Below, in pieces: positions 10,351-32,000 of a stretch of 32,000 bases of DNA; position 1 is the first letter of the stretch; the number at the start of each line of letters is the position of its first letter. The translations under genes and the position numbers were made by a program. The notes beneath the pieces are model-generated. The model searched no databases, was not told where the DNA came from, and saw nothing but the letters and a program-made list of their open reading frames with translations. This stretch comes from Candidatus Methylomirabilis limnetica (lineage in GTDB: Bacteria; Methylomirabilota; Methylomirabilia; Methylomirabilales; Methylomirabilaceae), in contig NZ_NVQC01000013.1 of the NCBI RefSeq assembly GCF_003044035.1, positions 121,078 through 153,077 on the forward strand, in the 5' to 3' direction.

Positions 10351-10419
10351 TCATGTAGTGCCCCCCTGAAAGTCATTGGGGACGACGCGCTGCATGAGCG
10401 ACACGCACTCGCGCCGAAG
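10351..10419 (-). pseudogene. 3'-terminal remnant of a second hepT (DUF86) gene
   Basis: The minus strand reads ...RECVSLMQRVVPNDFQGGTT*. This aligns with the last codons of the intact hepT (...RECMSLMPCVAPND...) at 14547-14606. Confidence 0.55.
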
Positions 10420-10816
10420 TCACTTCCGCATACGGCGTTGTCTCTACCATCTGGTTCTCCCCATGAGGCTAACAGATATTAGCCGACAGTTCTTAGGCGG
10501 ACTCTACGATATTGGTGTGTGCAATGCAACACGATACTCGTGACACACTCCTTGGAACACTCTTGAACAAAACGCTTGCACGGGAACCCACTGTTGGATA
10601 GCCTGTTCGTCAGCTAGGGATGATACCCAATGCCTCAGGTGTGGACCCGTCGCCCCCTTGCCCCAGATTCCCGGTGGCCAGCAGGGTACTTGCAGGTGGC
10701 CATAGACTCTTTTCTCCAGGCGCTGACAAACGATTCGGTGGTTGCTGTGGTAGAGGCCGACCGGTTGCTCGGTGGGGCCGTCAGGTGTTGGCCATAGCAA
10801 CGGAGGTGAGAGACTG
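10410..10816 (-). repeat. conserved non-coding element, copy A (core 10469-10658, plus flanks shared with copy C)
   Basis: Aligns by eye with 14345-14533 and 15331-15520. The flanks 10410-10468 and 10659-10816 align only with copy C. Strand assignment is tentative. Confidence 0.8.
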
Positions 10817-11299
10817 ATGCGGCGAGCGTTGACCATCGCGGGCTCCGATTCCGGCGGTGGAGCGGGGATCCATGCCGATCTGAAAACGTTCACAGCCCTT
10901 GGTGTGTTCGGGACATCGGCGATTACGTCGGTTACGGCCCAGAACACGATCGGCGTCCATGGGGTGCACGATCTGCCGCCGGAGTTCGTAGGGGGCGCCA
11001 GATCGACTCGGTCCTTGACGATATCGCCATCGACGTGGCCAAGACCGGGATGCTTTCGAGCGCAGCGATCATCGAGGTGGTCACGGCGAAGGTGAAGGCG
11101 CATGCGATCCAGCGGTTGGTAGTCGATCCGGTGATGGTGGCCAAGAATGGGGCGCCGTTACTTCGGTCTGATGCCGTGAACGCGCTCATTGAGCGTCTGC
11201 TGCCCCTTGCCCTTGTTCTCACGCCGAATGTGCCGGAGGCTGAGGCGCTCACAGGGCTGACGATCACTGAGCTCAATGGGATGCGTCAGGCGGCGCGGC
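10817..11299 (+). pseudogene. thiD: 5' fragment of a thiD paralogue, frameshifted and truncated
   Basis: Colinear with thiD 15904-16384. Two extra G in the G-run 10991-10995 shift the frame, so the ORF track splits into 10772..11095 and 11035..11316. Homology ends at 11299. Confidence 0.85.
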
Positions 11300-11329
11300 C
11301 TACAACAGGCGGATAGAAAGGTGGAAGAC

Positions 11330-12760: not shown

Positions 12761-12983
12761 TGTCTGAGGCGTTGAAGCTTTTAGCCGAGTGAAGCGAGTC
12801 GCCGCTCACCCAAGGCGGTCTGGCAAGACTGGTGAAGTCCAGCCAGTCCAGGGTCGCCAAGATGGAAGCCGACGATCCCTCGGTGTCTTGGACCTGCTCA
12901 TTAGAACCCTTCTGGCGCTGGGAGCCTCGAGTCGCGAGATAGCGAGAACCTTCGCGCCCTCTCGTCGCGCCACGGCGGCCTAA
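12760..12983 (+). pseudogene. decayed XRE-family HTH (antitoxin-like) gene
   Basis: MSEALKLLAE-TGA-SESPLTQGGLARLVKSSQSRVAKMEADDPSVS, then a -1 shift into LDLLIRTLLALGASSREIA...*. It carries one in-frame stop and one frameshift. Confidence 0.55.
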
Positions 12984-13053
12984 CGCTCCGCTTCATCTGC
13001 GGGCGCTCACGCCTCATCAATGGCGAGCCGTCAACTGCAAGCGGTAGTTAGGT
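12978..13053. mobile_element. attC-like hairpin site R (76 bp)
   Basis: The plus strand reads GCCTAAC ... GTTAGGT and the minus strand ACCTAAC ... GTTAGGC, so RYYYAAC / GTTRRRY appear on both strands. The interior is an imperfect palindrome (CCGCTT/AAGCGG, CGCC/GGCG, GCT/AGC with bulges). Confidence 0.5.
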
Positions 13054-13057
13054 CTTT

Positions 13058-13384
13058 TCACGAAAACAGTTCCGCCAAAGTCGAGAAAACCGCCGACTGT
13101 GTTTGCGGCCCAACTTTCCCCAATCTTTTCACCAATCTTGATTTGTCGACAGTTCGAATCTGGTCGAGAACAATCTGGGCTTGCTTGCCTTGGGAAACAC
13201 AAGAAACCCGAGAGGGATAATCTCGCCCCTTCGTGGTCATTGGGGCAACTATGACTGTGGCAATGAAACGGTTTAATTCGTCCGGCGAGATGATCAGACA
13301 GGGGCGACTCTTCTTGATCTCGCTTCCAACAGTAGGGTCCAGGTTTACCAGATAGACTTCAAACCGTTTCACTTCCATTCCCAT
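13058..13384 (-). CDS. mazF: type II toxin, MazF/PemK-family endoribonuclease
   Basis: 108 aa with VYLVNLDPTVGSEIKKSRPCLIISPD...VIVAPMTT...VLDQIRTVDKSRL. Confidence 0.85.
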   Translation of the reverse strand: MGMEVKRFEVYLVNLDPTVGSEIKKSRPCLIISPDELNRFIATVIVAPMTTKGRDYPSRVSCVSQGKQAQIVLDQIRTVDKSRLVKRLGKVGPQTQSAVFSTLAELFS

Positions 13385-13626
13385 TCTTCCTTATCCCAGG
13401 AAGTCTGGCTAGCCGCATCCGCATCCAACAACTTGTCATCGCCCCTTGCCGCCATGGCCCGGAACTTTTCCGCCCAGCCTTCGCGCGGCTTTTTCACTGA
13501 GCGAATGATAATCTGGCGGTCCCCAACCTGAAGCTCAACCTCGCCACTCAGATGGGTCTGCTCCAACACCACTTTGGGGATTCTAATGCCTTGGGAATTA
13601 CCGATGCGAACGATGCTTGCCTTCAT
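13369..13626 (-). CDS. mazE: type II antitoxin, AbrB/MazE/SpoVT-family
   Basis: 85 aa with IVRIGNSQGIRIPK swapped-hairpin motif. Overlaps mazF by 16 nt. GGAGGTGG RBS. Confidence 0.8.
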   Translation of the reverse strand: MKASIVRIGNSQGIRIPKVVLEQTHLSGEVELQVGDRQIIIRSVKKPREGWAEKFRAMAARGDDKLLDADAASQTSWDKEEWEWK

Positions 13627-13656
13627 CGAATACCACCTCCAACCAACCTTGATATA

Positions 13657-13690
13657 ATTACAATGTAATCACATCGTACTCTTTCGTCAA
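13657..13690 (-). promoter_or_regulatory. putative mazEF promoter with palindromic operator
   Basis: Minus strand: TTGACG (13690-13685), 17 nt, then TACATT. A perfect palindrome ATTACAtTGTAAT (13657-13669) overlaps the -10 region. Confidence 0.4.
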
Positions 13691-13701
13691 TAGTGAAATA
13701 G

Positions 13702-13768
13702 GCCCAACGTTCACGTCAACCGGCGCGCGCCGCTCTTGCGCGCGTCCGTGTTGGGCGTGCTGTTAGGG
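13702..13768 (-). mobile_element. attC-like hairpin site Q (67 bp)
   Basis: Minus strand: CCCTAAC-ag-CACGCCCAACA-CGGaCGCGCGC-aagagcg-GCGCGCGCCG-GTTGACGTG-aac-GTTGGGC. Homologous in architecture to the site at 31522-31587. Confidence 0.6.
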
Positions 13769-14334
13769 TGCCCTCGCTGCTCAGTGGGCTTGCCGACAAT
13801 TGAAGGCGTCGACGCAAAGTCCCAGTTGTCTTCATACACCGAAGCCAGCGGTGCAGGGACGGCGATCGGGCGATCATTGGGAAGACCGATGCGAAATAGA
13901 CGCCGGTCGCTGGTGCGGTGCGCCGGGTTGTCTTTGAGCCATAGTTGATGCTCGTCTCGCACGTATTTGGCAACGACGACACTCGGGACGATAAAAAATC
14001 GCAACGCGTACTTCGACAACTCAGTCCGGCTCGAATTGATGTGCACGAAGCAGTAGAACAGGTTCGGGTCAATGACGCCTTCGTGCTTGGCGCTCATCTG
14101 CCAATCGGTAACGAATGTTTCAAAGAGCCTTGAATCACTGTCGCGGGTGCGAGTCTCGAGGTTTGTCTTAACCTCGACTTCGTAACGTGCGCCCCTGCGG
14201 GGGTCGAGCACCAGGATGTCGATGTTCTTCGTATGACCCAGAGTCATGCCTGCGTCGTAGCCCCGCAGTGTCAATTGCGATAGGACGGCAAATTCTCCCG
14301 CGAGCCCTACTGAATTGGGTGGAATTCGCGCCAT
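13711..14334 (-). CDS. PD-(D/E)xK nuclease-like hypothetical protein
   Basis: The N-terminus GLAGEFAVLSQLTLRGYDA...NIDILVLD...YEVEVKT matches the G..GE / D / E-x-K layout of Hjc/YraN-type nucleases. No family was recognised for the C-terminal half. Confidence 0.55.
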   Translation of the reverse strand: MARIPPNSVGLAGEFAVLSQLTLRGYDAGMTLGHTKNIDILVLDPRRGARYEVEVKTNLETRTRDSDSRLFETFVTDWQMSAKHEGVIDPNLFYCFVHINSSRTELSKYALRFFIVPSVVVAKYVRDEHQLWLKDNPAHRTSDRRLFRIGLPNDRPIAVPAPLASVYEDNWDFASTPSIVGKPTEQRGHPNSTPNTDARKSGARRLT

Positions 14335-14344
14335 ATTGAGTGCC

Positions 14345-14540
14345 CTAACAGATATTAGCCGACACTTCTTGGACGGGCTTTACGATATTGGTGCGTGCTA
14401 TACCAACACGATACTCGTGACACACCCCTTGGAACATCCTTGAACAAAACGCTTGCACAGGAACCCCCTGTTGGATAGCCTGGTCGTCAGATATGGATGA
14501 TACCCAACACCTCAGGCGTGGACCTGTTGCCCCCTCCAAC
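14345..14540 (-). repeat. conserved non-coding element, copy B (core only)
   Basis: 14345-14533 aligns with 10469-10658 and 15331-15520. On the minus strand it is bounded by GTTGGAG (14540-14534) and GTTAGGG (14349-14343). Confidence 0.8.
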
Positions 14541-14546
14541 GCGGTG

Positions 14547-14909
14547 TTAGCCCACCTCGTCATTGGGGGCGACGCAAGGCATGAGCGACATGCACTCGCG
14601 CTGAAGCACCGATACATCGTGTTCGACGATCGCCCACACGACAGCGTCATCCACGGTCGGGTACTCGTGGGTAAGCTGGTTGCGGAAGTCCACGATCCTC
14701 CGTGCCCGCGTGATTGCATCGAAGGCATCCGGTGCGACTCGGCCGAGTGCCGCGGCCGCCTCTCCGATGATGATGAACTCGCGCTCGACCGAAGAGCGGA
14801 CGAGGCGATTGCTTTCATACCCGGCGAGATTAAGGTCTCGAACCGCGACGGTGATCGCGTCGCACGACTCGATGATGTCGGCCAAGTAGGCACGCGCATC
14901 ACGCGGCAT
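14547..14909 (-). CDS. hepT: HepT (DUF86) toxin of a HepT/MNT module
   Basis: 120 aa with the Rx4HxY motif RNQLTHEY. Overlaps the upstream MNT gene by 11 nt. Confidence 0.85.
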   Translation of the reverse strand: MPRDARAYLADIIESCDAITVAVRDLNLAGYESNRLVRSSVEREFIIIGEAAAALGRVAPDAFDAITRARRIVDFRNQLTHEYPTVDDAVVWAIVEHDVSVLQRECMSLMPCVAPNDEVG

Positions 14910-15207
14910 AAAGCATCTGCCTCGTACGCTCGATGTCGCGGGCGATGTACGGGTTTTTGATGGCCCCCACCATGACCAAGTCGATCTTCAGGCCTAATAC
15001 GGTCCGGAGTTCTTCCAGCATGCCGAAGTAGGCCTCGACTCGAGCGTACGGCTCCATCGGCCCGAACTCGACCAACAGGTCCAGGTCGCTCTCATCCGGT
15101 TTGAAGTCATCATGCAAAGCCGAACCGAACGCGTACAGCCGTACCACACCATGGCGCACGCAGGCCGCAGCTATCGCTTGGCGATTGTTCTCGAGAACAC
15201 CGATCAT
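14899..15207 (-). CDS. mntA: MNT-family nucleotidyltransferase antitoxin
   Basis: 102 aa with LYAFGSALHDDFKPDESDLDLLVEF (the GS...D.D nucleotidyltransferase motif). Confidence 0.85.
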   Translation of the reverse strand: MIGVLENNRQAIAAACVRHGVVRLYAFGSALHDDFKPDESDLDLLVEFGPMEPYARVEAYFGMLEELRTVLGLKIDLVMVGAIKNPYIARDIERTRQMLYAA

Positions 15208-15268
15208 GACGTGTCTCCCACGTTCATCGTACCTACAGCGGGTGAGGCGCGCACCGGCCAGGAACGAT

Positions 15269-15660
15269 CCGCGCCGAAGTCACTTCAGTGTGCGGCGTTG
15301 TCTCTACCCTCTGGTTCCCCCCCGATGGGGCTAACAGATATTAGCCGACACTCCTTGAATGGACTCTACGATATTGATGCATGTAAGGCAACACGATACT
15401 CATGACGCGCCAATTGGACAACTTTTGAACAAAACGCTTGCACAGGAAGCGACCGTTGGATAGCCTGTTCGTCAGATATTGATGATACCCAACAACTTAA
15501 GCGTGGACCAATCGCCCCCTTTAACCGAGATCCCCGGTGGCCAGCATGGTACTTGTAATTGGCCATGGGGTCTTTTCTTCAGGCGGAGACCAACGATCCG
15601 GCGGTTGCTGTGGCAGAGGTCGACCGGATGCTGGATGGGGCGGGCAGTCTCCGGTGGAGT
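15269..15660 (-). repeat. conserved non-coding element, copy C (core 15331-15520, plus flanks shared with copy A)
   Basis: Aligns with copy A across both flanks and the core. It lies between the mntA start and thiD. Confidence 0.8.
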
Positions 15661-15759
15661 ACGTGGACGATATCCAGAGGACGTCGGCCGGGCAAGCACC
15701 CGTGCGTGGTTTGCTATGTCCCGCCAGTATAGTGTCCCATAAGTCCCTTTACAGTGATT

Positions 15760-15874
15760 GTCATTCTGGGCTTGACAAGCCTGCCCCGTACTTGATACGG
15801 GGGAATCCAGTCTTTCTGTGCTGGATTCCCGCTCCCCGCTTAAGGCATGCGGGGACAAGCTTCGCGGGAATGAC
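15760..15874. repeat. multi-hairpin REP-like element (family 2)
   Basis: Outer arms GTCATTC (15760-15766) and GAATGAC (15868-15874) enclose three hairpins: CCCCGTA/TACGGGG, GGAATCCAG/CTGGATTCC, CCCCGC/GCGGGG. It is absent from the otherwise homologous copy A. Confidence 0.7.
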
Positions 15875-15903
15875 GGCTTCGGTACAACGGAGGTGATAAA
15901 CCG

Positions 15904-16698
15904 ATGCGGACGGCGCTCACGATAGCAGGCTCCGATTCCGGGGGTGGAGCGGGGATCCAGGCTGATCTGAAGACCTTTGCCGCCTTGGGTATCTTCGGGA
16001 CATCGGCGATTACGTCGGTCACTGCCCAGAACACGGTCGGTGTCCAGGGGGTGTACGATCTGCCGCCGGAGTTCGTCGGGCGCCAGATCGACTCGGTCCT
16101 GGAAGATATCCACATCGACGCGGCCAAGACCGGGATGCTTTCGAGCGCAGCGATCATAGAGGTGGTCGCGGAGAAGGTGAAGGCGTATGCGACCATGCGG
16201 CTGGTGGTCGATCCGGTGATGGTGGCCAAGGGTGGGGCGTCGTTACTTCGGCCTGATGCCGTGAAGGCGCTCGTCGAGCGTCTGCTGCCCCTTGCCCTTG
16301 TTCTCACGCCGAATGTGCCGGAGGCTGAGGCGCTCACAGGGCTGACGATCACCGAGCTCAATGGGATGCGTCAGGCGGCGCGGCAGATCCACGGCCTCGG
16401 CCCGAGGTACGTTGTCCTCAAGGGGGGCCACCTTGGCGGTCGCGCGATCGATCTCCTGTTCGACGGAAGTCACTTCACGGAGTTGGATGCCGAGCGGATC
16501 GATACGCCGCACACCCACGGGACCGGATGCGTCTTCTCTGCGGCCATCACCGCGGAGCTGGCCAAGGGCAGTCCGGTTCCAGAGGCAGTTGCCATCGCCA
16601 AGCGCTTCATCACGGCTGCAATCCACTATGGGTTTCGGCTTGGCAAGGGATTCGGTCCGACCGATCCGATGGCGGCCGCAAGGAGCCTCACGCCATAA
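15904..16698 (+). CDS. thiD: hydroxymethylpyrimidine/phosphomethylpyrimidine kinase
   Basis: 264 aa with [21 protein letters not shown]...[11 protein letters not shown]...HTHGTGC. GGAGGTG RBS. Confidence 0.9.
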
Positions 16699-30183: not shown

Positions 30184-30292
30184 CTCTCACTCCACCGCAG
30201 TAACGATCTCCCCACCGACTTTCCTCCATGACCGCTTTTACCATAGCATACGGCCCTTGGACTCCGCTACAGTAGATCACTCCTCATCACCC

Positions 30293-30329
30293 AATCCCCC
30301 CCTTTCAAAAAGGGGGGCGAGGGGGGATT
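30293..30329. repeat. C-run/G-run hairpin repeat (family 1, copy 4)
   Basis: AATCCCCCCCCTTT caa AAAGGGGGG cga GGGGGGATT, with alternative nested pairings. Confidence 0.65.
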
Positions 30330-30367
30330 TGGCGGTGACACTGATTGGAAAGTCTCCCCCACCCGCG

Positions 30368-30467
30368 TCACCGCGAGGGAGCGGAGCGACCGAAGCAATC
30401 CCATCGTTCTTCACACCCTCAAGGACATTCAGATTGCCACGCTCCCTTCGGTCGCTCGCAATGACGA
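30368..30467. repeat. REP-like long imperfect hairpin (family 4)
   Basis: GAGCGACCGAAG (30384-30395) pairs with CTTCGGTCGCTC (30446-30457), and CAATC pairs with GATTG. Confidence 0.6.
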
Positions 30468-30839
30468 GCCAGTGAGTGGCATAGTCTGGCTTTAAACTTT
30501 CATACCCAAGAGCGCCCTATATCCACATGGCTGCCAACACACTACGACGATCTATACCCATGTAATGAACCGAAGGGACAAGGGAATCCACAGCCCAGTC
30601 GATAGGCTCGAATTTAGCTAGGGCAGTTCGCTGTGGGAAGGTTGAATAGGCTGACCTGGGTGCAGCGTTTGCCGTCATCAGGATTTATAAGAATGTATTG
30701 CTAACTACGCGATAAGGCTGTACTATTTGCTCTGACCTAAAAACGGTTGGTCTGGATATACTGGTCAGCATACATAATAGTTGGGCAACATGTACCCCAG
30801 TGTTGTCTGACTCTTTAATCAAGGGGAAGGGAGAGCAAT

Positions 30840-31002: not shown

Positions 31003-31224
31003 ATGAAGCAATCGTCGGTTGTGCACTGCGATCCTGATATCCTGGGGGGCACCCCGGTGTTCGTTGGAACGCGCGTTCCTGTTCAGGCGCTGATTGACTA
31101 TATCGAGGGCGGCCACTCCCTTGAAACGTTCCTTGATGACTTCCCAACCGTGAGCCGGGACATCGCGGTGGCTGCTCTCGAGCAGGCGAAAGTGCATTTA
31201 CTCGCCGATGCGCGTGCTGCTTGA
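31003..31224 (+). CDS. DUF433-family protein (putative antitoxin)
   Basis: 73 aa with ...DPDILGGTPVFVGTRVPVQALIDYIEGGHSLETFLDDFP..., the typical DUF433 core. Confidence 0.8.
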   Translation: MKQSSVVHCDPDILGGTPVFVGTRVPVQALIDYIEGGHSLETFLDDFPTVSRDIAVAALEQAKVHLLADARAA

Positions 31225-31510
31225 CGAATGTTTCCCCCGAGCCTTACGCGTGGAGCTTCCTGGCCACGAAATCGCGACGGTCGCTGAAGCCGGGTGGGCT
31301 GGCGTTAAAAATGGCGCGCTCTTGCAACTTGCGGCAGCGCGGTTTGAAGTTCTCTTGACCGTTGATCGCAATCTAGAGTATCAGCAGAACTTTTCCAGTC
31401 TTACGATCGCCGTCATCGTAGTTGACTCCCCAAGCAACGATGTTGAGGTGCTTCTGCCATTGTGCCCAAGGTCCTCGAAGCCTTACCCAAGGCCAAGCCT
31501 GGAGTCGTGA
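31208..31510 (+). CDS. DUF5615-family PIN-like protein (putative toxin), with a likely 3' frameshift
   Basis: MRVLLDECFPRAL...LLTVDRNLEYQQN. Overlaps the DUF433 gene by 17 nt. After about 31455 a different frame gives the family-like tail IVPKVLEALPKAKPGVVTHVHG*, ending at 31527. Confidence 0.7.
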   Translation: MRVLLDECFPRALRVELPGHEIATVAEAGWAGVKNGALLQLAAARFEVLLTVDRNLEYQQNFSSLTIAVIVVDSPSNDVEVLLPLCPRSSKPYPRPSLES

Positions 31511-31521
31511 CGCATGTCCAC

Positions 31522-31587
31522 GGCTAACAGCGCAATCACACCGACGCGCGCAAAAGCGGTGCGCGCGGGTGATTGCGAACGTTGGAC
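31522..31587 (+). mobile_element. attC-like hairpin site P (66 bp)
   Basis: GGCTAAC-ag-CGCAATCACa-CCGaCGCGCGC-aaaagcg-GTGCGCGCGG-GTGATTGCG-aac-GTTGGAC. Same architecture as site Q at 13702-13768. Confidence 0.6.
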
Positions 31588-31903
31588 GACATAACAATGG
31601 ACAAACGTATCTTGTGGGCAGTGTTCTCGGATTACTCGCTTTAATATTTGCGTATTCCTATCAAAGCCGCTACCCATTCTGATCGCAAAGTAGACATCTC
31701 TTCCGATTGAACTCGGCCAGACGTTCCGATGTTGGTGCAGATTTGTGGTTGAAATCTACACCGCGATGCCGAGGGTGACATCCCCGCTTGGAGGTGGAGA
31801 GTCCTTCTGATCAGCGGGAATAGGCTGACCGTTCCTGCAGTGTTTGCCATGTTCCGGATCGTTGGAAATTCCTTGCGGGTGTAAGACAAATTTATGGGTA
31901 ATA

Positions 31904-31968: not shown

Positions 31969-32000
31969 ATGACAACACCACTTGAACAACTGGAAGAGCG
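31969..32000 (+). CDS. start of an unidentified gene (3' end lies outside the window)
   Basis: ATG at 31969 follows AAGGAGG. Only MTTPLEQLEE is visible. Confidence 0.35.
   Translation, partial: MTTPLEQLEE

Follow-up and report, generated by a model that had tools for sequence, protein, structure and literature searches.

Site Q, a 67-nt element at the 3' end of a gene for a 207-aa protein, is almost certainly a genuine integron attC site (59-base element) that ends a cassette carrying a PD-(D/E)xK-type nuclease-like gene and forms a two-attC CALIN with a neighbouring site, R. The attC site and its cassette are of a known kind, found in an unusual host, the methane-oxidising Candidatus Methylomirabilis limnetica. 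An earlier reading of the same DNA (the first-pass annotation) had proposed an attC-like site here, and the proposal is borne out by the bulged architecture of Q, by cassette junctions at G/TT (the slash marks the point of crossover) in at least four contexts, by covariation of the R'' end and by arrays of related sites beside intI genes. Positions below are those of the window, the whole 32-kb stretch of DNA that was analysed (Table 1).

Table 1. Positions of the sites, cassettes and neighbouring features in the window
Feature	Positions	Strand	Evidence or remark
Site Q, attC of the 207-aa gene cassette (very probable)	13702..13768	-	67 nt; sequence, ssDNA fold, covariance models, covariation
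R'' inverse core site of Q, CCCTAAC	13762..13768	-	sequence; covaries with cassette start
R' core site of Q, GTTGGGC	13702..13708	-	crossover between G13708 and T13707
Gene cassette, 641 bp	13708..14348	-	T14348 to G13708; blastn homology limited to unit, flanks unrelated
207-aa ORF	13711..14334	-	PD-(D/E)xK-like core, residues 1-173; apparent read-through tail, 174-207
Site R, attC of the mazEF cassette	12978..13053	-	76 nt, ACCTAAC...GTTAGGC
mazE-mazF toxin-antitoxin cassette, 724 bp	12984..13707	-	bounded by G/TT of Q and of R
MazE_antitoxin	13369..13626	-	Pfam
PemK_toxin	13058..13384	-	Pfam
Sigma-70-like promoter (candidate), TTGACG-17-TACATT	13662..13690	-	between Q and mazE; consensus scan
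MNT/HepT toxin-antitoxin pair	14547..15207	-	between A-type copies A and B
MNT	14899..15207	-	Pfam NTP_transf_2
HepT	14547..14909	-	Pfam HepT-like
A-type copy A	15331..15496	-	beside thiD; self-BLAST, alignments
A-type copy B	14345..14509	-	left junction of the 207-aa cassette at its terminal GTT (G14349); junction analysis
A-type copy C	10468..10630	-	self-BLAST
Site S, attC of the Q family	31522..31587	+	66 nt; self-BLAST, 78% identity to Q
DUF433/DUF5615 (PIN-like) gene pair	31003..31224; 31208..31510		toxin-antitoxin

Architecture of site Q and of its family

The top strand of Q is the minus strand of the window, and its bottom strand is the plus strand. The ends described in the first-pass annotation, CCCTAAC (near RYYYAAC) and GTTGGGC (GTTRRRY), were found on the minus strand; position 1 of R'' is a C and no purine, and the same column varies across the site family. 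Between the ends lies the imperfect hairpin that had been described, and it is the single one in the ssDNA fold of the 67 nt (dG -22.1 kcal/mol). Dinucleotide shuffles folded at a mean of -14.8 +/- 2.1, which gives z = -3.45, and 0/200 shuffles were equally stable. The stems listed earlier are all present, that is, CACG with CGTG, CAAC with GTTG, CGG with CCG, and CGCGCGC with GCGCGCG. From the outside in, Q consists of a 6-7-bp terminal R''/R' stem (R box), a spacer of 2x3 unpaired bases, a bulged inner stem that is broken at C14-C16/A53, A20 and A24, and a 7-nt loop. To place every unpaired base on the 5' arm went too far, since A53 and the AAC at 58-60 are unpaired on the 3' arm; the description holds for the net bulged bases of the inner stem, C16, A20 and A24, which are all on the 5' arm of the top strand. 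The L-box position of Q (GCCCAAC with GTTGAC) has a polarity opposite to that of attC_aadA.

Q has R''/R' ends with the invariant AAC and GTT, extrahelical bases on one arm, and a crossover at the G/TT of R' that delimits discrete cassettes, and its imperfect hairpin has the attC layout of R box, spacer, L box and variable terminal structure (Cury et al. 2016, Fig. 2, PMC4889954). The association with an integrase and with arrays was found for the family of Q and for its cassette in other loci, not within the window. An alternative 55-nt site, GCCCAAC...GTTGGGC (13756..13702), was rejected: its ends are perfectly complementary, but 12 nt of one arm stay unpaired in it, and it mismatches the family alignment. 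No Rfam family reached its gathering score anywhere in the 32-kb window.

A search for relatives of Q in one genome per species, with the core common to Q, its orthologues and site S as the pattern, gave at least 120 stretches, and the window's own genome was not among the matches listed. Most of the listed pattern matches are chance occurrences in GC-rich genomes, and about 20 among the matches listed have the full 65-67-nt architecture. The Q-type sites come from metagenome-assembled genomes (MAGs) of Burkholderiales, Nitrosomonadales, Methylomonas and other Gammaproteobacteria, Nitrospira, a deltaproteobacterium and others.

An alignment of 24 family members has AAC and GTT invariant in 24/24, with column 16 mostly C and column 24 A in at least 90% of the members. 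The bases assigned to the structure pair in 91% of cases overall and in 95% within the inner helix, compared with 27-47% in controls with a slid register. Compensatory double changes occur in 11/19 inner pairs, and the covariation score (0.353, against 0.127 for shuffled alignments) was reached by 0/500 shuffles. The central 7-bp GC stem is invariant by construction, because the pattern used in the search, derived from Q and S, included it; the covariation falls in stems outside that pattern. The two outermost R''/R' pairs are poor (unpaired in 13/24), as arrays would lead one to expect, the final 6 nt of R' being there part of the adjacent cassette.

The attC calls made here rest on proxy covariance models built on the Q family. 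With the family model, R1, Q reached 85.7 bits on the minus strand versus 13.7 on the plus strand, while the score of S was 76 bits. The model also matched R, which was outside its training set, over the full length (26.1 bits, E ~8e-5), and it found nothing else in the window at E<0.1. A leave-out model, made from 19 sites of other genomes and no window sequence, gave 82.6 bits for Q (E ~3e-21) on the minus strand versus 14.3 on the plus strand, 73.3 bits for S and 27.4 bits for R. Site R was thus matched by both models without training on it, with E values of ~3e-5 to 8e-5.

With the family model, co-oriented arrays of Q-type sites spaced 0.3-1.2 kb apart were found in related loci, comprising about 16 sites in L086, about 12 in L125, and 5-10 each in L074, L036, L084, L115 and L045. 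The L125 array starts just downstream of a divergent intI N-terminus, and arrays adjoin intI in L125, L030 and L061, the integrase fragments there being matched best by integron-integrase models.

In a reciprocal test, four class 1 integrons carried by clinical plasmids, 52 kb in all, were located with an IntI1 probe (100% identical to the annotated IntI1) and searched with the family model with filters off and E up to 1. All six matches lay on the cassette strand and at known attC positions, with none false: aac(6')-Ib (35.7 bits, twice), aadA2 (28.4), blaVIM-2 (24.3), gcuF (22.3) and aadA5 (21.9). Some longer attC sites on the same plasmids were missed (dfrA12, dfrA17, arr-3, aac(3)-Ia and aac(6')-Il). 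When aadA2 is aligned to the model, its two bulged bases fall at positions 16 (C) and 24 (A); on the bottom strand, the recombinogenic one, they correspond to the extrahelical G and T.

The gene cassette and the tail of its open reading frame

The 207-aa gene and Q form a discrete 641-bp unit that is present in at least four unrelated contexts. Homologues of the protein at 81-88% identity are encoded on contigs with unrelated neighbours: the cassette follows an IS91-family transposase and precedes prpD in L008, follows a pyridine-nucleotide oxidoreductase and precedes brnT in L009-L012, and lies directly and divergently beside a 116-aa gene in L013/L014. By blastn, L008, L009-L012 and L013/L014 match the window only within 14349..13704. 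On the left the flanks have nothing in common up to GTTA(G/A)GGC, while the right flanks split immediately after GAACG/TT, continuing as ttgggcc in the window, ttaaacc in L008, ttggcgt in L009 and ttggcct in L013. Since these edges of homology fall at G/TT, they mark integron-cassette crossover and define the cassette. The left junctions in L008 and L009 are a plain ...AC/GTT with no attC upstream. The 116-aa product in L013/L014 has as its sole NCBIfam matches the integron-integrase models TIGR02249 and NF011946 (N-terminal 68-84 positions, E ~1e-17), so that the gene is read as a truncated intI in the classic arrangement of intI, attI and first cassette.

A further sign of cassette origin is that R'' is complementary to the cassette's own first bases and covaries with them, GTTAGGG corresponding to CCCTAAC in the window and GTTAAGG to CCTTAAC in L013; the extended pairs are GTTAGGGCGCTC with GAGCGCCCTAAC in L008 and GTTAAGGCGCTC with GAGCGCCTTAAC in L013. 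Such covariation is predicted by the circular intermediate, in which the first bases of the cassette complete R'.

In L008 the cassette copy comes immediately after a Xer-like tyrosine recombinase and the IS91-family (Y2) transposase (L008 236..2277), neighbours that may offer a second route of mobilisation. Two integrase-like genes were considered as intI and rejected, the one beside the cassette in L008 and another downstream of an A-type element (see below) in L139; each is matched best as a Xer-type recombinase and falls under the integron-integrase cut-off.

By extension from what is established for integrons, the plus strand, that is the bottom strand of Q, would fold into the hairpin, and an integron integrase would recognise the R box, the L box and the extrahelical bases (the complements of C16, A20 and A24). 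It would then cut between A and C of AAC, equivalent to G/TT on the top strand, to excise or insert the 641-bp unit. The cassette was, we infer, brought here by an integrase working in trans, with its gene elsewhere in this genome or in a donor.

The first-pass annotation had placed the last 19 codons and the stop of the ORF inside the site, which is right within rounding: Q contains codons 190-207 (18 complete codons), one base of codon 189 and the TGA at 13713..13711. It had also suggested that the tail is accidental read-through, and the comparison of homologues agrees. In 19 homologues D39, E54 and K56 are invariant and the conserved core ends at YEDNW(D/E)F, near residue 173, the distant members stopping 2-10 codons later. 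We compared substitutions among four DNA copies of the cassette. In the core (codons 1-173) 30% of columns are variable and the changes at first, second and third codon positions number 20, 24 and 110 (110/154 third). In the linker (codons 174-189) 70% of columns are variable, and the even spread of changes (11, 11 and 11) indicates that it is neutral. In the part encoded by Q only 16% of columns are variable, with 5 and 3 changes at first and second positions and 3 at third positions, a pattern indicating that the tail is conserved as a DNA site and not as a peptide. Pairwise identity is 53-68% in the linker and 88-94% in Q, and residues 177-207 are predicted to be disordered (pLDDT <50). On these substitution patterns, the last ~34 codons of the 207-aa ORF appear to be fortuitous read-through into the spacer and the attC.

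The label 'nuclease-like' given earlier to this gene stands at the level of fold class. The fold model of the 207-aa protein is moderate (pLDDT 73, pTM 0.72; the other four models are poor), and the fold search returned only PD-(D/E)xK nucleases (SPARDA nuclease domains, I-Ssp6803I, EcoRV and Hjc; E 1e-4 to 1e-2, modest TM). A profile search of the 207-aa family against PDB sequences gave no match.

Alternative explanations of site Q

A GC-rich imperfect palindrome with related copies in the window (Q and S) might be a REP-type repetitive extragenic palindrome or another structural repeat without a role in recombination. This is exceedingly unlikely, given that the window holds only three copies in 32 kb, each at the 3' end of one or more co-oriented small accessory or toxin-antitoxin genes, that the G/TT junctions are exact in independent contexts, that arrays lie beside intI and that the family model picks clinical attC sites specifically. 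The first-pass annotation had itself named hairpins scattered without cassette context as the mark of a REP element, and no such copies were seen within the 32 kb. An intrinsic terminator or mRNA-stabilising hairpin of the 207-aa gene would likewise place a stable hairpin at the 3' end of the gene, but there is no T-run after the stem, the terminator scan did not report Q, and neither the strand asymmetry of the scores under the family model nor the conserved AAC and GTT ends are features of terminators; we give this reading almost no weight, and Q may have a secondary effect on transcription. A C-terminal peptide (NSTPNTDARKSGARRL) that is functional in the nuclease-like protein might instead be what selection has conserved in Q, with the palindrome incidental. 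The peptide is kept in the five closest homologues and the frame is open in 4/4 DNA copies. Selection for the peptide is nevertheless highly improbable, because the attC part lacks the third-position bias that is so marked in the core, the linker is neutral, distant homologues stop shortly after the core, the tail is predicted to be disordered, and the same family of DNA sites also lies behind unrelated genes.

It is conceivable, although we doubt it, that Q is an attC by descent and now an inert relic, the cassettes having come as a block by horizontal transfer or rearrangement into a host without an active integrase. The 32-kb window contains no intI, the locus has been rearranged by a segmental duplication, the L013/L014 copy of the cassette adjoins a truncated intI, and CALINs are frequent in integrase-less genomes (Cury et al. 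2016, PMC4889954). Against this, Q has been kept while the linker decayed, which argues for continuing constraint on the site. Two Methylomirabilis-like loci, moreover, hold other content between the same flanks: L136 has thiD, the A-type element and then different sequence, and in L145 the A-type element is followed by 1.6 kb of other genes and a different attC, after which the same distal flank sets in from R' on. The same flanks with different content argue for turnover within the lineage.

Locus context and comparison with known integrons

The Asd, GlgP and ThiD proteins encoded in the window are identical to PTL36733.1, PTL36747.1 and PTL36745.1 of Ca. M. limnetica. Taking Q as an attC site, the order along the minus strand, from Pfam and the L001 gene calls, is thiD (on the opposite strand), A-type copy A, the MNT/HepT pair, A-type copy B, the 207-aa ORF, Q, mazE-mazF, site R and a gene for a DUF4139 protein (on the other strand). 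Site R has the same layout as Q (dG -16.4, z -2.5). The promoter-like sequence ahead of mazE suggests, as a hint only, that the mazEF cassette might carry its own promoter, the promoter-scan matches in this region being not above those in shuffles. No ORF of the window has an integrase domain by Pfam, tblastn with IntI1 found none in the 32 kb, and the adjacent intI with attI that would make a complete integron was not found there. Q and R lie ~650 nt apart and, with no integrase in the window, make up a CALIN, defined as at least two attC sites close together with no integron integrase nearby (Cury et al. 2016, PMC4889954).

Site S, 17.8 kb from Q, lies directly behind the DUF433/DUF5615 gene pair. 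It keeps the ends and the central GC stem of Q, and its middle stem is different yet paired (CGCAATCA with TGATTGCG). There is no second attC nearby and no integrase within the window, and this lone attC is accordingly, within the limits of the window, a SALIN (Loot et al., bioRxiv 10.1101/2022.09.11.507474). A candidate left junction of the S cassette lies at ~30921 (CTTAGCCGT, complementary to the extended R'' of S). The assemblies of several samples break or diverge ~180-290 nt past S (L003 at 31764, L007 at 31876); by coordinate mapping a 152-kb ENA contig (NODE_42) ends near 31770, and a new ORF starts at 31970. These breaks suggest strain-variable or repeated sequence just past the window end.

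The locus also contains a segmental duplication, 10372..11299 versus 14559..16384 (82-89% identity), which covers the first 164 codons of thiD, the thiD upstream region, the A-type element, ~60 nt of the 5' part of MNT and 48 nt of the 3' part of HepT. The duplicated thiD is a frameshifted pseudogene (10817..11310, plus strand), and the duplicated copy has an internal deletion, being without the 237-nt stretch 15648..15884. The DUF4139 gene and the cassettes lie between the two copies, and the related contig L145 is without the duplication. GC-rich palindromic REP-like stretches occupy 15648..15884 and 30280..30470 (for example cccccctttcaaaaaggggggcgagggggg; gcggggagcgggaatccag...ctggattccc). 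The metagenomic contigs L135 and L140 again have such stretches near A-type elements, and the duplicated copy C has none.

The A-type element, at whose copy B the 207-aa cassette begins, is ~165 nt long, its three copies in the window being 82-88% identical and ending in ...GTCGGCTAATATCTG/TTAG. A metagenome scan found ten further copies (L135-L137, L139-L145), in all of which homology ends right after CTGTTAG and the downstream sequence differs each time. The genes upstream vary by locus (thiD; bipA and a lipoprotein gene; hemC/cobA/maf), and L140 and L141 have a common upstream side of the element and different downstream sequences. Copy B, L137, L143, L144, L145 and, weakly, L140 continue from the element into one or two ORFs ending in a co-oriented attC recognised by the model. 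With the family model no attC was found upstream of any A-type copy, and no intI adjoins any of the copies examined. Given its constant G/TT end and the varied cassette-attC units downstream, the A-type element behaves like a receptor site that is present in several copies and has no integrase beside it. Its end reads GGCTAA-N6-TTAGCC with the junction at G/TT, an arrangement that resembles the inverted boxes of the attI simple site.

Several other readings of this element were rejected. Repeats A (15329..15461) and B (14343..14476), 134 nt with ends ATCCAAC...GTTAG, do not qualify as long attC sites in a four-site array, having no hairpin (z ~-1); the alignment fold of the three A-type copies is likewise without R''-R' pairing, and they gave no attC-model match even at E<10. 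TTGCAT-17-TAGAGT within the element fails the scanner criteria for a promoter. We advance only tentatively the idea that the A-type element is an orphan attI-like site, or a specialised attG receptor, for a trans-acting integron integrase, and so a multi-copy landing pad at housekeeping loci; we consider it somewhat unlikely. If true, the integron platform of Methylomirabilis would be split into several chromosomal entry points, and of the whole system it is this receptor element that could raise a new question.

The workings of attC sites and CALINs are already well established, and the finding itself will not surprise specialists. It places a mobile integron cassette and a small integrase-less cluster in Ca. 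M. limnetica, a nitrite-dependent methane oxidiser of NC10; our literature search returned no reports of integrons or attC sites for NC10/Methylomirabilis. The sole related entry found was a group IIC-attC intron of Methylomirabilis oxyfera, listed as not inserted in an integron cassette array. The spread of Q-type sites through environmental Beta- and Gammaproteobacteria and other MAGs implies that cassettes move from phylum to phylum. The locus also provides a natural example of two effects that are known yet seldom documented, namely the extension of a cassette ORF by read-through into its own attC, and the covariation of R'' with the bases that begin its cassette, which follows from the circular intermediate.

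Among the systems already described, CALINs resemble the Q/R array in being small, rich in toxin-antitoxin genes and set among housekeeping genes with no intI nearby (Cury 2016, PMC4889954), whereas the Q/R array begins upstream at a ~165-nt multi-copy element that is neither an attC nor a recognisable attI. Site S, a lone attC after one toxin-antitoxin cassette, is comparable to the SALINs described alongside attG insertion (Loot et al., bioRxiv 10.1101/2022.09.11.507474). The left junctions in L008 and L009 fit the pattern expected at genomic GWT sites, as in attG insertion; the receptor in the window is, unlike attG, a repeated element (copies A, B and C) and not a unique genomic sequence. 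The window differs from the sedentary VCR arrays of Vibrio in having three attC sites at two loci and no long array, although the Q-type sites of L086, L125, L074 and L036 do form long co-oriented arrays of similar attC sites, as in Vibrio. Compared with class 1 attC sites, Q has a GC-rich 7-bp central stem (CGCGCGC with GCGCGCG) common to many environmental genomes, a third bulge at A20, a host in the Methylomirabilota (NC10) and no integrase nearby. In other respects Q is built like attC_aadA2 and attC_aac(6')-Ib, with RYYYAAC-like and GTTRRRY ends, an R-box stem, a central spacer, a bulged stem and a variable loop, and it resembles the class 1 sites further in the alignment of bulges C16 and A24 with attC_aadA2, in its length of 67 nt, in its position 3' of a co-oriented ORF and in its crossover at G/TT.
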